A stretch of DNA of 64,000 nucleotides from positions 6,076,001-6,140,000 of the forward strand of contig OX597831.1 of NCBI GenBank assembly GCA_951406725.2, in the 5' to 3' direction. The DNA comes from Octopus vulgaris (lineage: Eukaryota). A program made the translations under genes and the position numbers. The first letter of the stretch is position 1. Each line of letters opens with the position of its first letter. Below, piece after piece: positions 2,306 through 53,649 of the stretch. The notes under the pieces were generated by a model, which made no database searches, was not told the origin of the DNA, and was given only the letters and a program-made list of their open reading frames with translations.

Positions 2306-2603
2306 TATATGCTAACACACATAAAGTTTTCTGCTGATATACACAGCTCTCTTTCTTGACAGCTCAGCAAATGAATGAAGTTTTTATCATGAACATTATT
2401 GGACTTGGTTAACTGATGTCATGCTATGACTTCATACAGTTCCTCACCATCACTCATCACACATCACTAACCTTTAATTCATGTCTCTTTCACTCTCTTC
2501 CCTTACTTTGGCAGTTAATAGTTTTGCACATGTGTTAAATAAATTAGAAGCACATTGGTATTTCTCAGGTCATGTTGACATAAACTTATATTATTGCTAA
2601 TTT

Positions 2604-3017
2604 AAGGCAGCGAGCTGGCAGAAACGTTAGCACGCTGGGTGAAATGCGTAGCCGTATTTCGTCTGCCGTTACGTTCTGAGTTCAAATTCTGCCGAGGTCA
2701 ACTTTGCCTTTTGTCCTTTCGGGGTCGATAAATTAAGTACCAGTTATGCACTGAGATCGATGTAATCGACTTAATCCCTTTGTCCGTCCTTGTTTGTCCC
2801 CTGTGTTTAGCCCCTTGTGGGTAGTAAAGAAATAAGTATTTCATCTGCCGCTACGTTCTGAGTTCAAATTCCGCCAAGGTCGACTTTGCCTTTCATCCGT
2901 TCGGGGTCGATAAATTAAGTACCAGTTTCGCACTGGGATCGATGTAATCGACTTAATCCCTTTGTCCGTCCTTGTTTGTCCCCTCTATGTTTAGCCCCTT
3001 GTGGGCAATAAAGAAAT
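2604..3017 (+). mobile_element. SINE family B (Meta-domain-like), dimeric
   Basis: Head AAGGCAGCGAGCTGGCAGAAACGTTAG plus two ~184-bp units containing GCCTTTCATCC.TTCGGGGTCGATAAATTAAGTACCAG. Confidence 0.75.
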
Positions 3018-12275: not shown

Positions 12276-12464
12276 AAGAAAAACAAAAACACAGCACAGA
12301 CGAGCAATCAGACACAATCAAGCGCAGTTGTCAAGGATATTATCATTCAAATTCACTACCGTCTCTGTTGCGATTTTCAATATTGATATATTCTCAATCC
12401 AGCTATTTTCTCTTCCTCATTGAAATATTTATTATTATACATACATATATTTCTTGCTTTCACA

Positions 12465-13157
12465 ATGAATCATTCCGTCCGTCACATGAGTATCTCCGAA
12501 GAACGGGTGACCCACCAGTCGATCGTGTCCGCCCTAAGCAACTTCGTAACAGCCGTCAACCACATGGACTCGACAGTCATGATCCCGAGCCGGCTCAGAG
12601 ACATGGAGGTTTCGCAGGATTCGGACTCCATCATCAACTCGAACTCTGACCCTTATCATTCTTTCAGCGCCCCGCCGTCTCCTGCAGCTTCAATCTCCAG
12701 CATCCCAGCTCTCAACTCGAACCTGAAATTGAAACCGCACACCACCAACCATCGCCGGTATTCCGCCGAGCAAAGCACCCTGATGGGTACCGGTGCCGAT
12801 GCGAAGAACTTGTACAACTTCTACAGCATGTTGAAGGCCATTAAACAAGAAGTGACATGCGGAAACTTGGAAGATGACTGTCTGGAGTCTCCGACGGAGC
12901 AAGACCGTGACCAAGATCAAGAAGTGGACTCGACATCAACTATGGATATCTCCGACGAAGACGATTGCGCGTCAGTGGGTTCAAATAGCAGTGGCAGCGA
13001 AGAGTTACCAAGAAATGTGGCCAATTCGTTCAAGTTTCACCTCCGTGGATTATTTAACCTGTTGCAGGATTTTACGGAAACGGCGAAATATCTCTCCCAT
13101 AGGTATGAGAACGAAGTCGGTTCCAGTCAGGCTAACAAAATACTATCTCAGTTTTAA
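12465..13157 (+). CDS. MID1IP1: Spot14/MID1-interacting protein 1 (THRSP/MIG12) family protein, single exon, 230 aa
   Basis: Non-repetitive, GC-richer ORF from cacaATG at 12465. It has the three Spot14-family blocks: SIVSALSNFVTAVNHMDSTVMIPSRLRDM, NLYNFYSMLKAIKQEV and FKFHLRGLFNLLQDFTETAKYLSHRYENEVG. Confidence 0.9.
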   Translation: MNHSVRHMSISEERVTHQSIVSALSNFVTAVNHMDSTVMIPSRLRDMEVSQDSDSIINSNSDPYHSFSAPPSPAASISSIPALNSNLKLKPHTTNHRRYSAEQSTLMGTGADAKNLYNFYSMLKAIKQEVTCGNLEDDCLESPTEQDRDQDQEVDSTSTMDISDEDDCASVGSNSSGSEELPRNVANSFKFHLRGLFNLLQDFTETAKYLSHRYENEVGSSQANKILSQF

Positions 13158-28064: not shown

Positions 28065-29336
28065 TTGGGTTGTCCGGAAAGTTCGTACCAATTTTTAAAG
28101 GAAAGAAAAAGGACAATAAATACTTGCCATTACATTTTTAATCAACCAAATATGAACCATTTTATTGCACAATGCATCTCCCTTTTTCCTTTAACTTGAA
28201 AATACCCTCTTCCCAGAATTGAGGTGGTTTCATGGCAAAGAATTCATCAAGGTATCTTCTTACATCATCCAAGGAATTGAAATTTTTACCATTAAGACTA
28301 TTCTGCAGAAACCTGAATAAGTGGAAATCCGAAGGAGCAATATCTGGTGAATATGGAGGGTGGAGTAACACATCCCAGCCGAGCTGCAGCAATTTTTGTC
28401 TGGTTCCCAAAGAAACGTGCCATCTTGCATTATCAAGTTGGAAAACAACACCCTTCCTGTTGGCCAATTCTGGACGTTTCTCTTGAATTGCTGCTTTTAA
28501 CTCGTCCAGTTGTGTGCAGTGTTTCTCAGAATTAATTGTCTGGTTACTTGGGAGAAGCTCATAGTACAGAATTCCTTTGCAATCCCACCAGACACAAAGC
28601 AAGACTTTTCTAGGGTGAAGACCTGCTTTAGGTGGCTCATGTTGCTTACTCCAGGATCGCTTTCTCTGAACATTTCGGTAGGTAATCCATTTCTCATTAC
28701 CTGTCACAATTTACTTTAAAAAAGTCACGTTTTCATTCCATTTATAAAGCGAATCACAGATGGAAATGTGATCCAAAAGGTTCTTCTCACTCAACTCATG
28801 TGGTATCGAAACATCATAGCGATTTGTGTACCCAAGCTTTACCAGGTGCTCATGAACGACGGATTTTGATAGGTTGAGGCTTTCTGTCAATTCTCAGGTT
28901 GTGCAATGTGGGTTATTCTCAATTAATGACTTGATTTGGTCATCATCTGTAGTGGATGGTCTGCCTGACCGCTCTTTATCAATAAGGCTACAATCTCCAG
29001 CTCGGAACCTTGCGAACCACTTCCGTACAGTTCTTTCAGATAAAGAAACATCACCGTAAACTGTGCATATTTCTTTGGTTGCTTGTGAGGCACTTTTCTC
29101 TTTACGGAAAAAGAAAAGCATCAAGTGTCGTAAATGAACTTTCTTATCTTCCATTTTAAAGGATTACGGAATTAACACAGGTTATAGGAACACAAACCTT
29201 CTTCCACGAAAAGATAGCTTAAACTGTGCTCTAAATGGAGGTGTAGTAAAATCCTATTTTATGGACTCAACCATGTTCTAAAATAAGTCGAAAGGTAAGC
29301 TACTATAAATTGGCATGAACTTTCTGGACAACCCAA
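28065..29336 (-). mobile_element. Full-length mariner (DD34D) transposon, transposase frameshifted
   Basis: TIRs TTGGGTTGTCCGGAAAGTTCGTACCAATTT / AAATTGGCATGAACTTTCTGGACAACCCAA. ORF pieces LSERTVRKWFARFRAG..RSGRP, TGNEKWITYRN, DNARWH and HPPYSPDIAPSDFHLF. Confidence 0.95.
28162..29154 (-). pseudogene. Mariner transposase pseudogene
   Basis: Two ORF fragments (28894-29154, 28162-28707). The first catalytic D appears as N. Confidence 0.9.
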
Positions 29337-37639: not shown

Positions 37640-38180
37640 GCATAACTCTGGTGACAGCAATACAATAAATCGTATTTTTTATTGATCGATACTGTGGCTT
37701 GTTGAAGAATATGCAATTTTCATAGAGGCAGAGCTGGCAATTGGAGGCGCCAGGTGAATATGGTGGCGCTTTGTCGACAATAGTCCGCTTGATGCTTGGT
37801 ATTTCATCTCAGAAATCATGGAGTCTCCAGACAAAGCGAGACAGAGAAGTAGAATTCTCTCTGTCTCTGGATCTGAATGAGTGCATATGCTGGGAGTATC
37901 TTCCCTTGAAGTCATTAGCTGTCATACCTGTATAGTGCCGAGTAATGCCATTGTATGGTGTAAGGGTGGCTCTGTATACTATGGCCCTTAAGAGGCAAGA
38001 TCCTTCTAGAAGGCACATGGTGGTGTTTTGGAAGTTCAGGTTGGGGTTGGGGGTGGTGTGGGAGCATTTTACGTCTATTGATGCATGCAATGTCAGATGC
38101 GATGTCATCTAAGCAGGAGTAGCTTACCTTGACATTATGGGGGTTGAAGAGTTTGTAATATTTATGGCCTCTGGGGAATT
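37640..38180 (-). pseudogene. Penelope-like retroelement GIY-YIG endonuclease C-terminal fragment (Neptune-like)
   Basis: Frameshifted pieces [93 protein letters not shown] and INKKYDLLYCCH. Confidence 0.85.
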
Positions 38181-42115: not shown

Positions 42116-42635
42116 TGAGAGAGAGATTCAAAGTTGTATGGTGCATAGTTCAAGGTCGTTTATCATAATATTCTTGATGATTAAACGCACTTCAGGGGGA
42201 GATTTAGATTCAGTGAAAGACCATGATGATAATTTCTGTCCTGTTATCAGCATCACTGCATTGTATCCTTAATCAAGTCCTGTGATCAACAATAGCCAAG
42301 TCCACCTAGCTGTAAAGAAGCCCCATGTACAAGATAACATTGTCAAACTGATAAGGGATTTATTTGTTTCCACTACTGACAGAAAGAAGTTACTCGATCT
42401 ATGTGTAGGGCCTCCAATGGTAAGATCTACTCTGATGCTAAACTGTATCGACACAAATCGGTTATCTTTCCCTTGAGTAAACACCAATGGTGTTGAGGTG
42501 GGAGACTCGCAAGTTTGGGAAATTCCTCGTGGGGAAAACAAAAATTGTGCAGGCATAGTTGGTGCGGGGTAAGAAGCTTGCTTCCTTTCATGCGTGTCAA
42601 TGGACTTGGAAGGAGAGAAAAAAAAATGGGATGAG

Positions 42636-42778
42636 GGAATCACTCGGCTTATCCGTCGATGAAGAGCGTGGCTATCCGCATGAACTGATGCAAATTGCAG
42701 GACCCAGTGAACATCGACACCTCGAATGCACATTGCGGCCCCAGGATCCCATTGTCCCGGGGCCCCGTTTTCAAAGTG
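42636..42778 (+). pseudogene. Dispersed, diverged 5.8S rRNA pseudogene
   Basis: ATCACTCGGCT..CGTCGATGAAGAGCG..AATTGCAGGAC..GAACATCGACACCTCGAATGCACATTGCGGCCCC..CCCGGGGCC follows the eukaryotic 5.8S consensus. No recognisable 18S or 28S flanks. Confidence 0.85.
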
Positions 42779-43195
42779 AAGGTGGCAAGCTGGCAGAAAC
42801 GTTAGCACGCCAGGCGAAATGCGTAGCCGTATTTCGTCTACCGCTACGTTCTGAGTTCAAATTCCGCCAAGGTCAACTTTGCCTTTCATCCTTTCGGGGT
42901 CGATTAAATAAGTACCAGTTACGCACTGGGGTCAATGTAATCGACTTAATCTGTTTGTCTGTCCTTGTTTGTCTCCTCTGTGTTTAGCCCCTTCTGGGTA
43001 GTAAAGAAATAGGTATTTCGTGTGTCGCTACATTCTGAGTTCAAATTCCACCGAGGTCGACTTTGCCTTTCATCCTTTTGGAGGTCGATAAATTAAGTAC
43101 CAGTTACGCACTGGGGTCGATATAATCGACTTAATCCCTTTGTCTGTCCTTGTTTGTCCCCTCTATGTTTAGCCCCCTGTGGGCAATAAAGAAAT
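42779..43195 (+). mobile_element. SINE family B dimer
   Basis: Head plus two body units. Confidence 0.8.
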
Positions 43196-48499: not shown

Positions 48500-48755
48500 A
48501 TTTCAGCAAAACAATTAAGATTCAAATGAATATGGTACTTAACTTAGATGCACCAGAATTCTTTATGGTATTAACCATAAAAATATGTGGGGTGATTATA
48601 ACCAAGAAAAAAGTAACGAGAATGGATCAGTAATTTAGTACAATTGTTTCATACTAAGAACATTTTTATTTTGCAGCTTTAAATAAAAATGTTCTTAGTA
48701 TGAAACAATTGTACTAAATTACAAATCCATTCTTGTTATTTTTTTCTTGGTTATA
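48500..48755 (-). mobile_element. Fold-back element retaining the 3' half of a hammerhead
   Basis: Arms 48597-48671 / 48681-48755, each with GAAA-CAATTG-TA; the CUGANGA half is absent; flanked by TA repeats. Confidence 0.6.
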
Positions 48756-48798
48756 TATATATATATATCTGTAAATGTAATATGTGACAATTATTCAG

Positions 48799-48872
48799 TA
48801 GCCATGATAAAACTCTGAGTTTCGGATGCCACAATGGAAATCCACGCTGCCATCTCTTCAGTTATCTGGCCA
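48799..48872 (-). ncRNA. Type I hammerhead ribozyme motif (left arm of the 48767-49062 element)
   Basis: GGCCA-GATAA CTGAAGA GATG..CATC C GAAA CTCAGAG TT TTATC-A-TGGCT. The plus-strand twin at 48908-48968 has the core mutated to CTGAAAA. Confidence 0.7.
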
Positions 48873-49540
48873 TCGGGGAAAAAAAGGAGCATTTTTTTCG
48901 ATGGCCGGGTAACTGAAAAGATGGCAGCATGGATTTCCACCTCGACATCCGAAACTCAGAGTTTTATCATGGCTACTGAATAATTGTCACATTAACAGAT
49001 AAATTCGTCTATTTACATATCAAAGTCTCTTTCATTCTTTTGTTGTCTTACCATTTCTATCAATATATATATATATGGAAATTGTAGCTGTGATAATAGT
49101 GCCGGTGGCACATAAGAGAACCATCCGAACGTGGCCGTTGCCAGCGCCGCCCTGACTAGCTTCCATGCCGGTGGCATGTAAAAAGCACCATCCCATCGTG
49201 GCCGTTGCCAGCCTCACCTGGCCTTCGTGCCGGTGGCACGTAAAAAGCAACCACTACACTCATGGAGTGGTTGGCGTTAGGAAGGGCATCCAGCTGTAGA
49301 AACAATGCCAGATCAGACTGGGCCTGGTGCAGCCTTCTGGCTTCCCAGACCCCAGTTGAACTGTCCAACCCATGCCAGCATGGAAAGCGGACGCTAAACA
49401 ATGATGATGATGATGATGATGATATATACATATATATATATACACTTATTATTATGAGGATATATACCTCTTAAAAGGATGTTTATATGCTGAGTCTGTC
49501 AATGGTCCCTCAATCCTTTGGGATATGATACCTTTTTGTG

Positions 49541-49658
49541 TTGATTTCCAACCCTGATGAAATGTTCAATTTACTATATTCGAAATGCATCTAGAATTTA
49601 ATTATTTGGAATTTGAATTAATTGAATATAGAAACAGTTGTAAGTTATAAGAAATCAA
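49541..49658 (+). ncRNA. Type I hammerhead ribozyme motif with long stem II
   Basis: TTGATTTC-C-AACC CTGATGA A ATGTTCAATT..AATTGAATAT A GAAA CAGTTG TA AGTT-ATAA-GAAATCAA. Confidence 0.7.
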
Positions 49659-49911
49659 TGTTCAAAACTGGAGTTATGATAATTTTCTTTTTCTTATACA
49701 CACACACACACGCCCATATATACATCATCAGCCATGCTTCCTGAAACTTGCCAACACTACACCTGATATCCCCCATCACTCCATACTCCATGTATATCAT
49801 GGCTCATACACTGTTCCCTTTCCTGACTTTTGTACACAATCCTATGTACTGTACATGCACCTATGACGAGTTGTAGTGTACCTGAGCACTATACACAATA
49901 ATTTCACTATT

Positions 49912-49946
<35 letters not shown>

Positions 49947-49949
49947 TAT

Positions 49950-50345
49950 GTTATGTTTGACTTTTGCTTTACATTTGTACAAGTTGGCTCCAAGTCTCAC
50001 CCAGAGACCTCAAGAGACAAGTTGGAAGTTCATGTTGGTGTTATGTCTAGGGTGCCATATATTTCATTTTGTACATAGTGTTGTTCTAGAGAATGTTTAA
50101 GAAACCATCAGAAAATTATGTGTTTGTTTTAAAACTTGAGATTACATAGAAAGTATTTTGCGCAGGATATGGGCAGTTCCCATGAGCACTATCTTTTGAA
50201 TTTCTGCCATTTTGGGGTTTCCTGGTATCTGAGTTAGGTAGCAATCAGCCCCTTTTGCTATCATTCCCAGGGCACCCATGACAATAGATATTGTTTTAGT
50301 CTTCAGCTTCCACATTTTGCTAATTTCTATTTCAAGATGTTTATA
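49950..50345 (-). mobile_element. R4/Dong-like RLE LINE 3' fragment
   Basis: KHLEIEISKMWKLKTKTISIVMGALGMI..EIQKIVLMGTAHILRKILSM*; bounded by (TAA)n. Confidence 0.8.
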
Positions 50346-50346
50346 C

Positions 50347-50397
<51 letters not shown>

Positions 50398-50405
50398 CAT
50401 CATCA

Positions 50406-50497
<92 letters not shown>

Positions 50498-50498
<1 letters not shown>

Positions 50499-51010
50499 CT
50501 TCATAACACAGTGTAGGTAAAAAATGCACCTGAGCCTTTAGTCATCTTTCAAGTCACAGCAGGGACCTCAGACAGATAATTCTTTCCTTAAGATTTGTGC
50601 TATGCCCAGTAGGGCCACTTTTTGCAAGACATCAATCTTGTATGGGATTTCCAGTTGCCTTAAGGAATTTTGAAGTTTCAATGGGATTTTGAGTCCAGCA
50701 CTCCAATCACCACAGGTATCACTTTTACATTACCCTCATTCCATACAGTCTTGCCATTTCCACTTTCAAGTCGGAGTACTTGATGACTTTTTCAAACTCT
50801 TTACTTACAACATTCATGTCATTCGATATGGCTACATCAATGATCTGACAGCATTTGTCTCTCTTATTCAATGTGACAATATCTGGCCAACAGTGTTCGA
50901 TTATACGATCTGTCTGAAATTCATAGTCCCAGAATATCATTACATTTCCATCCTCGTGCTTAAATGTACTTGGTATATGCTCATACCAGTTCCCTGTTAC
51001 TTCATATTGG
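50498..51010 (-). mobile_element. Second R4/Dong-like RLE LINE 3' fragment
   Basis: IFWDYEFQTDRIIEHCWPDIV..CQIIDVAI..EKVIKYSDLKVEMARLY (restriction-like endonuclease); ends in (TAA)n. Confidence 0.8.
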
Positions 51011-51079
51011 TATATATATATTATTTATTATTACTATCTAATTGAACACTATGCATCCATTTCCAAGTAAGTATATATA

Positions 51080-51142
<63 letters not shown>

Positions 51143-51242
51143 TTTATTTTAAGCAGCAGAAAATTCAACAAAATCTGTTACTCTGAGTTTCTCGTTGCCG
51201 TTCATCAGACAGTTTTTGCTAAACTGTAGGTTTTTGCAAAAA

Positions 51243-51280
51243 CTGTCTGATGAACGGCAACGAGAAACTCAGAGTAACAG
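51243..51280 (+). ncRNA. Minimal type I hammerhead ribozyme motif
   Basis: CTGT CTGATGA A CG GCAA CG A GAAA CTCAGAG TA ACAG. An identical copy lies on the minus strand at 51175-51212 within perfect 78-bp arms. Confidence 0.8.
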
Positions 51281-51382
51281 ATTTTGTTGAATTTTCTGCT
51301 GCTTAAAATAAAGCATATTACTCTACCACTGGTATTTGAGTACTCTTTTTTCCACCTTGTTTCACATTTATGTGTTTACTCC

Positions 51383-51413
<31 letters not shown>

Positions 51414-51418
<5 letters not shown>

Positions 51419-52322
51419 CAATTGAGGATAAAATCTTTAAAAGAAATTATCAGTAGTCAGCGTGAAAAACCTCGTAAGAGAAAAAATCCGTAAATTCTTC
51501 CTCTTTGAAAATATTCATTTATATTATATTGAGGGTACTACTATTCGTAGATACCAACACGCTAAGAGGGACCAATGCGGTCAAAACTACTAAAAATAAA
51601 CAAAATTTTACCGAATGCAAAACTTCAAAACACATCATTTTAAAAAAGAATTCAGTTACATATCACATGTGATTTCGCATTTAATGCAGAATATGCATTT
51701 CATGTTCATCAGTGCAACAAACTCAAGAAATATAAGAGAAAAACATAACATTACAAGCTCGATAGCCAACCGTAGAATTCGTCGTAGCATGTACGAATGT
51801 TTATCTTTACATATCTATGAAAATGGCGGGCTTATTCGCAATGCATTTCGGTAATAAATTGTCTAGTCGGAATAAAAATTCAGTATTGAACTATTCCGGT
51901 GAAAAATATAAATTAACAATTGAGGATAAAATCTTTAAAAGAAATTATCAGTAGTCAGCGTGAAAAACCTTCTATTCCGACTAGACAATTTATTACCGAA
52001 ATGCATTGCGAATAAGCCCGCCATTTTCATAGATATGTAAAGATAAACATTCGTACATGCTACGACGAATTCTACGGTTGGCTATCGAGCTTGTAATGTT
52101 ATGTTTTTCTCTTATATTTCTTGAGTTTGTTGCACTGATGAACATGAAATGCATATTCTGCATTAAATGTGAAATCACATGTGATATGTAACTGAATTCT
52201 TTTTTAAAATGATGTGTTTTGAAGTTTTGCATTCGGTAAAATTTTGTTTATTTTTAGTAGTTTTGACCGCATTGGTCCCTCTTAGCGTGTTGGTATCTAC
52301 GAATAGTAGTACCCTCAATATA

Positions 52323-52330
<8 letters not shown>
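51414..52330 (-). mobile_element. Non-coding pLTR-like element: 498-bp unit, 59-bp terminal redundancy, 358-bp inverted copy
   Basis: Direct repeat 51414-51472 / 51912-51970; inverted arms 51517-51874 / 51973-52330; (TA)n on both sides. Confidence 0.85.
52129..52192 (+). ncRNA. Type I hammerhead ribozyme motif
   Basis: GTTGCA CTGATGA ACAT..AATGCA-TATTC-TGCATT..ATGT GAAA TCACATGTGA TA TGTAAC; minus-strand twin at 51655-51718. Confidence 0.85.
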
Positions 52331-52384
<54 letters not shown>

Positions 52385-52403
52385 ATATATATATATATGT
52401 ATG

Positions 52404-52458
<55 letters not shown>

Positions 52459-52479
52459 ATATATATATATATATATATA

Positions 52480-53095
52480 ATAAATATTAGGGAATAAATC
52501 CAAACTTACAGGGAAAAAATCAGATTTAGGATTGAATCCAATTTTATAGTAAAATATTATATTATATTAAATTAGAGACAAAACCACTATTAGGCAAATC
52601 ATACAATGAAAAACTTAAGCCAATACATAAGATTATTTAATTTATATTATTTAAATATATAACAAAATTATTAAAAAAATATAATTAATATATCACTACG
52701 ATCGTTTCATGGCTGCTATCTTCTTTAAATTTTCGAGTCACAGTCATTCATCAGGTGTTTTAAATATTTATCTTGGTGAGGTTAAACAATGAACAGTTCA
52801 TTTATCTTGGTGAGGTTAAACAATGAACAGTTCATTTATCTTGGTGAGGTTAAACAATGAACAGTTCATTGTTTAACCTCGCCAAGATAAATATTTAAAC
52901 CACCTGATGAATGACTGTGACTCGAAAATTTAAAGAAGATAGCAGCCATGAAACGATCGTAGTGATATATTAATTATATTTTTTTGATAATTTTGTTATA
53001 TATTTAAATAATATAAATTAAATAATCTTATGTATTGGCTTAAGTTTTTAATTGTATGATTTGCCTAATAGTGGTTTTGCCTCATCTCTAATTTA

Positions 53096-53102
<7 letters not shown>
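52480..53102 (-). mobile_element. Fold-back element with a 34-bp triplication at the apex
   Basis: Arms ~52561-52797 / 52864-53102; unit TTTATCTTGGTGAGGTTAAACAATGAACAGTTCA x3 (52767-52868). Confidence 0.85.
52901..52964 (+). ncRNA. Type I hammerhead ribozyme motif
   Basis: CAC CTGATGA ATG-A-CTG..CAG-C-CAT GAAA CGATCG TA GTG; minus-strand twin at 52694-52757. Confidence 0.8.
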
Positions 53103-53168
<66 letters not shown>

Positions 53169-53515: not shown

Positions 53516-53649
53516 AGCAGGCCGTCCTGCGAGCCATGAACTCACTTCATTTGTCAGGTCTTCGCAGTCACAGCATATCTCCAGAGGTATTCTGTGACTG
53601 CAAAGGCCTGACAAATGAAGTGAGTTCATGGCTCGCAGGACAGCCTGCT
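53516..53649. repeat. 58-bp inverted repeat at the 5'-truncated end of a family C-tailed insertion
   Basis: 53516-53573 vs 53592-53649, few mismatches. Confidence 0.85.

Follow-up and report, generated by a model that had tools for sequence, protein, structure and literature searches.

Penelope-like elements (PLEs) of the Hydra clade are marked by the motifs RWK and DKT, a CxCX5C linker, the absence of CCHH, and (TA)n targets (section 11 of Craig et al., 2021, PMC8557442). The supplement of that work includes Hydra-1_Obim of Octopus bimaculoides, with a hammerhead ribozyme and a (TA)n target. Minimal hammerheads of the dimer type occur in the pseudo-long terminal repeats (pLTRs) of PLEs, and motif pairs on opposite strands, 100-700 bp apart, have been ascribed to truncated PLEs (Cervera and de la Pena, 2014, PMC4209133). 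Inverted PLE copies with a tail at one end are also described (PMC8557442, PMC3846280). For the anole Poseidon element PAc, the tail is the stretch between two reverse transcription (RT) start sites; both target strands are cut and extended, the template is uncleaved RNA and hammerhead cleavage is dispensable (Frangieh et al., 2024, PMC11167929). Retrozymes of the non-LTR type, and their origin from PLEs, are the subject of work by Cervera and de la Pena (2020, PMC7229834) and of the preprint of Li et al. (10.64898/2026.07.22.740005), where the origin is argued from co-occurrence and phylogeny. For Octopus vulgaris, 31 recently active Penelope-like families have been reported in a main text that does not deal with hammerheads (PMC13282606). 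Here, six short hammerhead-bearing inserts (E1-E6) are described, which lie within 4.6 kb of a 64-kb stretch of the O. vulgaris genome (contig OX597831.1, positions 6,076,001 to 6,140,000; hereafter the window). The inserts are very probably products of PLE insertion: E2 and E4 from coding Hydra-clade elements, E1 and E3 from decayed Hydra-type elements, and E5 likely, E6 perhaps, from units mobilised in trans. Octopus is already known to have hammerhead-bearing Hydra elements that target (TA)n, and the pattern is mostly a known one.

One copy of each of the six families occurs in the window, and each lies, as the original prediction from the sequence had proposed, between simple repeats, here (TA)n or (CA)n (Table 1). 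Its further statement that the inserts have no obvious sequence in common also holds: matches between families are weak, of at most 12-30 nt (E≥0.029). Five long inverted repeats (367, 258, 101, 87, and 75 nt; 88-99% complementary) bear out the five inverted duplications it listed, to which E3 has to be added, being also two-armed through an inverted 37-nt piece of its own family's tail. The genome searched was a 2.8-Gb assembly in 227 contigs. The best 40 candidates were scored per search and first-look copy counts are lower bounds. Each insert belongs to a dispersed multi-copy family, with at least 2250 first-look candidates for E1, 2673 for E2, 86 for E3, 1596 for E5 (98-99% identity), and 924 for E6 (a 25-nt word from the core is matched exactly 324 times). 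E4 gave at least 215 with a query that included the fold-back junction of the window copy, which biased that sample towards the junction, and at least 835 with its upstream part as query.

The link to coding elements is most direct for E2. Two copies, when followed upstream, continue via a 3′ untranslated region (UTR) into an open reading frame (ORF) of GIY-YIG type. The linked endonuclease peptide has at least 18,654 first-look candidates genome-wide, many with open frames of 717 aa, and in 26 of the 30 loci fetched the endonuclease match is followed downstream by a hammerhead of E2 type in sense orientation. In a tandem array of 2590-bp units, the E2-type hammerhead is placed between ORFs; an intact 717-aa ORF there contains RWK, DKT, and CxCX5C, and the CCHH motif is absent. 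The long arm of E4 is identical (148/148 nt) to the pLTR of a 3352-bp PLE unit, whose ORF, frameshifted in the fetched copy, shows 44% identity to the 717-aa protein; it has RWK and DKT, and its linker reads C-N-F-K in both fetched copies. Remnants of a Hydra-type endonuclease are found upstream of E1 in three of six fetched loci and upstream of E3 in one of two stretches. Features of endonuclease-bearing (EN+) PLEs are also present, namely partial tandems (pLTR), an inverted 5′-truncated copy and a tail at one end. Judging from this continuity, E2 and E4 are the 3′ ends (pLTRs) of coding Hydra-clade PLEs, and E1-E4 appear as 5′-truncated copies of autonomous-type elements. The ORF and endonuclease linkage of E1-E4, together with the (TA)n flanks, supports the PLE origin, microsatellite targeting and PLE mobilisation that had been suggested. 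The same linkage removes E1-E4 from the non-autonomous class to which all six had been assigned, a label that is borne out for the ORF-less unit of E5 alone.

The Hydra-type RTs of loci L245 and L252 have the catalytic motif YKDD, while the published Hydra entries shown have YRDD. A separate, Neptune-like PLE group, found with PF01541, has RVT_1 and GIY-YIG matches in 781-aa ORFs, and the 781-aa family has an additional upstream ORF of 359 aa. These PLEs were considered as parents and set aside: none of E1-E6 forms their 3′ end, and nearby matches are set apart by (TA)n. They carry variant minimal hammerheads of their own, in sense and near their 3′ ends (in the 3′ UTR in L186/L187; also L189, L197; L193, L200), with a U3-A8 core (TTGATAA) and CATG stem III, a GTAC type, and possibly GCAA replacing GAAA.

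The anatomy of the insertions is common to all six families. The 3′ ends followed by (TA)n fall into two classes, 64-121 nt apart, which lie 42/139 nt (E1), 29/103 nt (E2), 79/200 nt (E3), 42/106 nt (E4), 150/249 nt (E5), and 143/218 nt (E6) from the predicted cleavage site. Among head-to-head insertions (75 pairs listed; n=71 after five rows from one locally triplicated locus were counted once), 68 combine a long with a short arm, two have two long arms, one is irregular and none has two short arms. The two end classes and their pairing fit the published PLE tail and two-site initiation; no report of such a one-long-one-short count was found in the literature searched. Inversion junctions differ among E5 copies, and private variants are common to both arms in 5 of 25 E4 copies, so that both arms were likely copied afresh from one template. 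The fold-back arises at each insertion and is not a property of the family. In a census of 98 unselected arms of E1-E4 and E6, in which the 30 arms of E4 are biased by the junction query, only three 5′ ends lie within 3 nt of the cleavage site, with no pile-up there; E5, read by eye, shows no sharp pile-up of 5′ ends. Since 5′ ends do not coincide with the cleavage site, the template was likely uncleaved. At locus L073 (~2500-3000), about 20 nt of flank are found inverted on the opposite side of an E4 insertion, beyond both of its (TA)n tracts.

A sequence of steps modelled on published PLE integration would account for this anatomy. The GIY-YIG domain of the PLE would cut both strands of a (TA)n tract, and the two cut strands would serve as primers for cDNA synthesis from a single uncleaved RNA, with one cDNA begun at the terminal start site and the other 64-121 nt upstream, at an internal one. 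After early termination of both, head-to-head joining of these cDNAs would leave a fold-back in which only one arm has the tail. The (TA)n left on either side would then allow later copies of any family to land adjacent, producing the chains E1-E2 and E4-E5-E6. The balance tips slightly towards a more specific version, in which the PLE enzyme acts as a dimer that makes two cDNAs on one RNA, obligately one per start site and target strand. In that version E5 would be a very young and abundant ORF-less hammerhead retrozyme with the same signature, and so direct anatomical evidence of retrozyme integration by PLE machinery, possibly from circular RNA.

Adjacency of this kind extends beyond the window. 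At 136 other loci, where a focal insertion was compared with inserts of the other five families, no more than 150 nt separates 9 of the 17 other-family inserts from the focal insertion, a zone that makes up 10.6% of the flank (p 2e-5). Eight of these nine are placed across a TA tract and one is nested. Further out, the density is one insert per 43 kb, against which six within 4.6 kb greatly exceed what chance would give. The cluster has likely formed because copies insert into one another's (TA)n flanks, and it stands at the extreme of a chaining effect that is general.

Table 1. Inserts, repeat tracts and further features of the 64-kb window (positions counted from its first nucleotide).
Feature	Position	Strand or arrangement	Description
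E1	48500..48755	head-to-head, long arm -, short arm +	3′ end of Hydra-type PLE family; long arm ends at terminal site 48500, short arm at internal site ~48755; both arms truncated within stem II, leaving only the 3′ half GAAA-CAATTG-TA, on both strands
E2	48769..49066	head-to-head	stem III CTCAGAG; pLTR of Hydra-clade PLE with 717-aa ORF; CTGAAGA intact on - (48861), CTGAAAA (G8A) on + (48913)
E3	49445..49690	+	old copy; core on + only (49554), stem I decayed; stem III CAGTTG (rest of family mostly CAATTG); inverted tail piece 49449-49483; upstream of family, decayed Hydra-type endonuclease
E4	51141..51382	head-to-head, cores +51247 / -51208	stem III CTCAGAG
E5	51412..52336	- (1.13 copies of 498-nt unit) plus inverted 367-nt arm on +	ORF-less; cores -51712 and +52135; head-to-tail junction 51905/51906; stem III TCACATGTGA
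E6	52479..53110	head-to-head, cores -52754 / +52904	stem III CGATCG; 34-nt unit x3.1 at junction (52766-52870)
(TA)n tract	48752..48768		common to E1 and E2
(TA)n tract	51385..51415		common to E4 and E5
(TA)n/(TATG)n tract	52318..52487		common to E5 and E6
Short fold-back	53532-53633		just beyond cluster; without hammerhead core in the scans made
PLE endonuclease region	37704-38178	-	decayed, Hydra-type (tblastn E 7e-14 to 2e-18)
Spot 14 / MID1IP1 family ORF	12387-13157	+	single exon (PF07084, E 7.5e-25); ~35 kb from cluster
Mariner-type transposase fragment	28162-28710	-	PF01359, E 3.5e-25
5.8S rRNA-like copy	42624-42781	+	diverged, dispersed (Rfam RF00002, 78 bits); adjoins 185-nt tandem SINE-like repeat

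Motif inspection agrees with the predicted type I hammerhead layout in five inserts and its 3′ half in one, and with a palindromic stem III in every insert; the window copies of E1, E2 (+ strand), and E3 are damaged. The full core (CTGANGA, GAAA and NUH) with palindromic stem III occurs on both strands in E4, E5, and E6. Stem II of E4 has 2 bp only, plus a GNRA-type loop with A.A closure. The ribozyme is complete in the E1 family, and its loss in the window copy coincides with the inversion. A strict descriptor, run on the window and on 500 block shuffles of it, gives three matches in the cluster and none in the rest of the window, compared with 0.002 on average in the shuffles. A second descriptor finds 129 distinct matches in 965 kb of fetched loci and none in one shuffled copy. 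Among these 129 matches, stem III takes the form of no fewer than 18 distinct palindromes, which implies many more families than the six studied. The Rfam scan named as a check in the original prediction, run at E≤1, has no hammerhead family among the 150 rows listed of 160 for the window. Across 23-62 distinct arms per family, ten core positions are conserved at 0.94-0.99, compared with 0.83-0.99 for the flanks, and stems I-III are paired in most arms. Two-sided stem changes are seen in stem I of E1 (A-U 25, G-C 6) and stem II of E3 (G-U 9, G-C 6, A-U 4), whereas the families of E4-E6 are too young for such changes. In the E2 family (L215-L244), core position 4 is C rather than U in 24 of 62 arms, as a subfamily-wide feature that recurs in older E4 copies.

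The stem III words form no hairpin alone, and their predicted duplexes range from -6.4 to -15.8 kcal/mol. The hammerheads are predicted to act as dimers in tandem transcripts. Transcripts of whole fold-backs are predicted to form long hairpins in which the core is paired, and the expected effect of folding back is a silenced ribozyme, not a doubled one. In kind, the hammerhead is the usual minimal pLTR ribozyme.

E5 and E6 differ from the other families in that the searches yielded neither a parent ORF nor a partner ORF for them. The E5 unit (498 nt, 31% GC) is ORF-less, its longest stop-free stretch being 84 aa, and tblastn of PLE proteins against it gives no match. E5 is a young non-autonomous retrozyme-like family that probably relies on a putative PLE partner enzyme of this kind for mobilisation in trans, and E6 may be mobilised likewise. 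E5 copies could come from hammerhead-processed circular RNA through rolling-circle reverse transcription, rather than from linear read-through of a tandem locus. The head-to-tail junction is present in 19 of 26 loci, and copies reaching ~2.2 units read through the cleavage site; stem III of E5 is probably long enough to form in the monomer, and circles have been shown for other animal retrozymes (PMC7229834). However, a linear multimeric template yields identical DNA, and the anole PLE inserted in vitro without need for hammerhead cleavage (PMC11167929). The RNA data are assembled contigs of four runs (one recorded as RNA), which cover E5, including the junction in X1, and give no ends or strand. 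The circular route is a tentative one, and rather unlikely.

For E6, no true tandem was seen among the 100 places listed of 324. The one same-strand trimer there, on C5, proved to have arisen by duplication on the spot, its units being set apart by (TA)n, and an upstream extension in L059 is local only (two candidates). The longer E6 arms mostly begin 28-42 nt upstream of the core; as the coding family E2 has a similar start zone, this is no proof of non-autonomy. Elsewhere, a second ORF-less tandem hammerhead unit of ~495 nt with stem III TTGATTCAA occurs in L200 (G000:C4:176462000-176470000, ~1420-1920); it also lies beside L252 and represents a further retrozyme-like family.

The trans-mobilisation proposed for E5 might be extended to all six inserts, which would then be independent non-autonomous ribozyme retroelements (retrozymes, or similar to short interspersed elements) borrowing PLE enzymes. 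The window copies all lack coding sequence, E5 is both ORF-less and tandem, and the starts of many E2 and E6 copies are bunched 15-45 nt upstream of the core, which short pLTR transcripts mobilised in trans might produce. The continuity of E2 and E4 with coding PLE units, and of E1 and E3 with endonuclease remnants, refutes this as a general statement, and 5′ ends of E1 spread across more than 600 nt, as truncation predicts. It is improbable for the six as a set, and could be true for a share of copies should RNA 5′ ends fall in that upstream zone. Fold-back DNA transposons (of the miniature inverted-repeat or Foldback kind), with long terminal inverted repeats and chance hammerhead-like words, would explain long inverted arms beside TA and the one junction common to many E4 matches, but can hardly be maintained, since that junction stems from the query, longer E4 copies exist, arms are unequal in a fixed way (the tail), junctions vary, many copies are single-armed or tandem, PLE ORFs are linked, and the copies examined do not show terminal inverted repeats that are fixed, of equal length and passed on together. 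E4 as a fixed fold-back master is set aside likewise, because the query contained the junction and longer E4 copies and the full PLE were found.

Several observations weigh against the explanation of the inserts by PLE insertion. Pfam gives no match on the Hydra-type ORFs and only E 0.024 on the endonuclease piece, and the Hydra-clade assignment rests on motifs, weak similarity to Pfam-positive PLE ORFs and a by-eye match to Hydra-1_Obim. The lack of a parent or partner ORF for E5 and E6 belongs here too. In the young families E4-E6, the core (0.99) is barely more conserved than the flanks (0.96-0.99), so that selection on the ribozyme is not demonstrated in them. Target-site duplications are unreadable within (TA)n, the tails of 64-121 nt exceed the 30-40 bp published for Hydra-clade PLEs (PMC8557442), and the scoring of the best 40 candidates biases all samples towards window-like copies.

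On the reading of the six inserts as PLE insertion products, abundant octopus-type "fold-back" repeats are to be re-annotated as PLE stumps, and in this genome Hydra-clade PLEs appear as a large group with recent activity. The one-long-one-short rule, seen in six unrelated families, constrains PLE integration, and the in vitro assay already published would allow a test of it. With E5, a near-identical (98-99%) natural non-autonomous substrate and intact candidate partners are available in one genome, which makes the proposed dependence of retrozymes on PLEs testable. In the literature searched, no report of these particular families was found; Repbase and Dfam were outside its scope, and the supplements of 10.64898/2026.07.22.740005 and PMC13282606 may list them.

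Compared with known systems, E5 resembles non-LTR retrozymes in its low GC content, its ORF-less head-to-tail unit with one type I hammerhead each, and its dispersal. Its unit length is above the 170-400 nt of PMC7229834 and inside the 51-972 bp of the preprint 10.64898/2026.07.22.740005. In contrast to retrozymes, its hammerhead is minimal and not canonical, arrays reach at most ~2.2 units, and it bears the PLE tail and inversion signature, of which the parts covered of both retrozyme texts report none. With the metazoan PLE hammerheads of PMC4209133, the families have in common the minimal type I core, palindromic stem III and high within-genome diversity, but several stems II here have long loops (to ~65 nt), and U4C and G8A variants occur. 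For the anole PAc element in vitro (PMC11167929), the strands were not seen to differ in start site, whereas here the arms differ in 68 of 71 insertions. Features found here and in the Hydra-clade PLEs of PMC8557442 are a single ORF with RWK, DKT, CxCX5C, and C-terminal GIY-YIG, a unit of ~2.5-3.4 kb, a hammerhead placed in sense close to the 3′ end, targeting of (TA)n, insertions both in tandem and inverted, and a one-end tail. One Hydra entry in that supplement nearly matches the E4 ribozyme (stem I ACTGT, stem III CTCGGAG). Stem III of Hydra-1_Obim itself is of the ACCAATGGT type, so the families described here are others; where that source gives one octopus Hydra family, this genome contains at least four.

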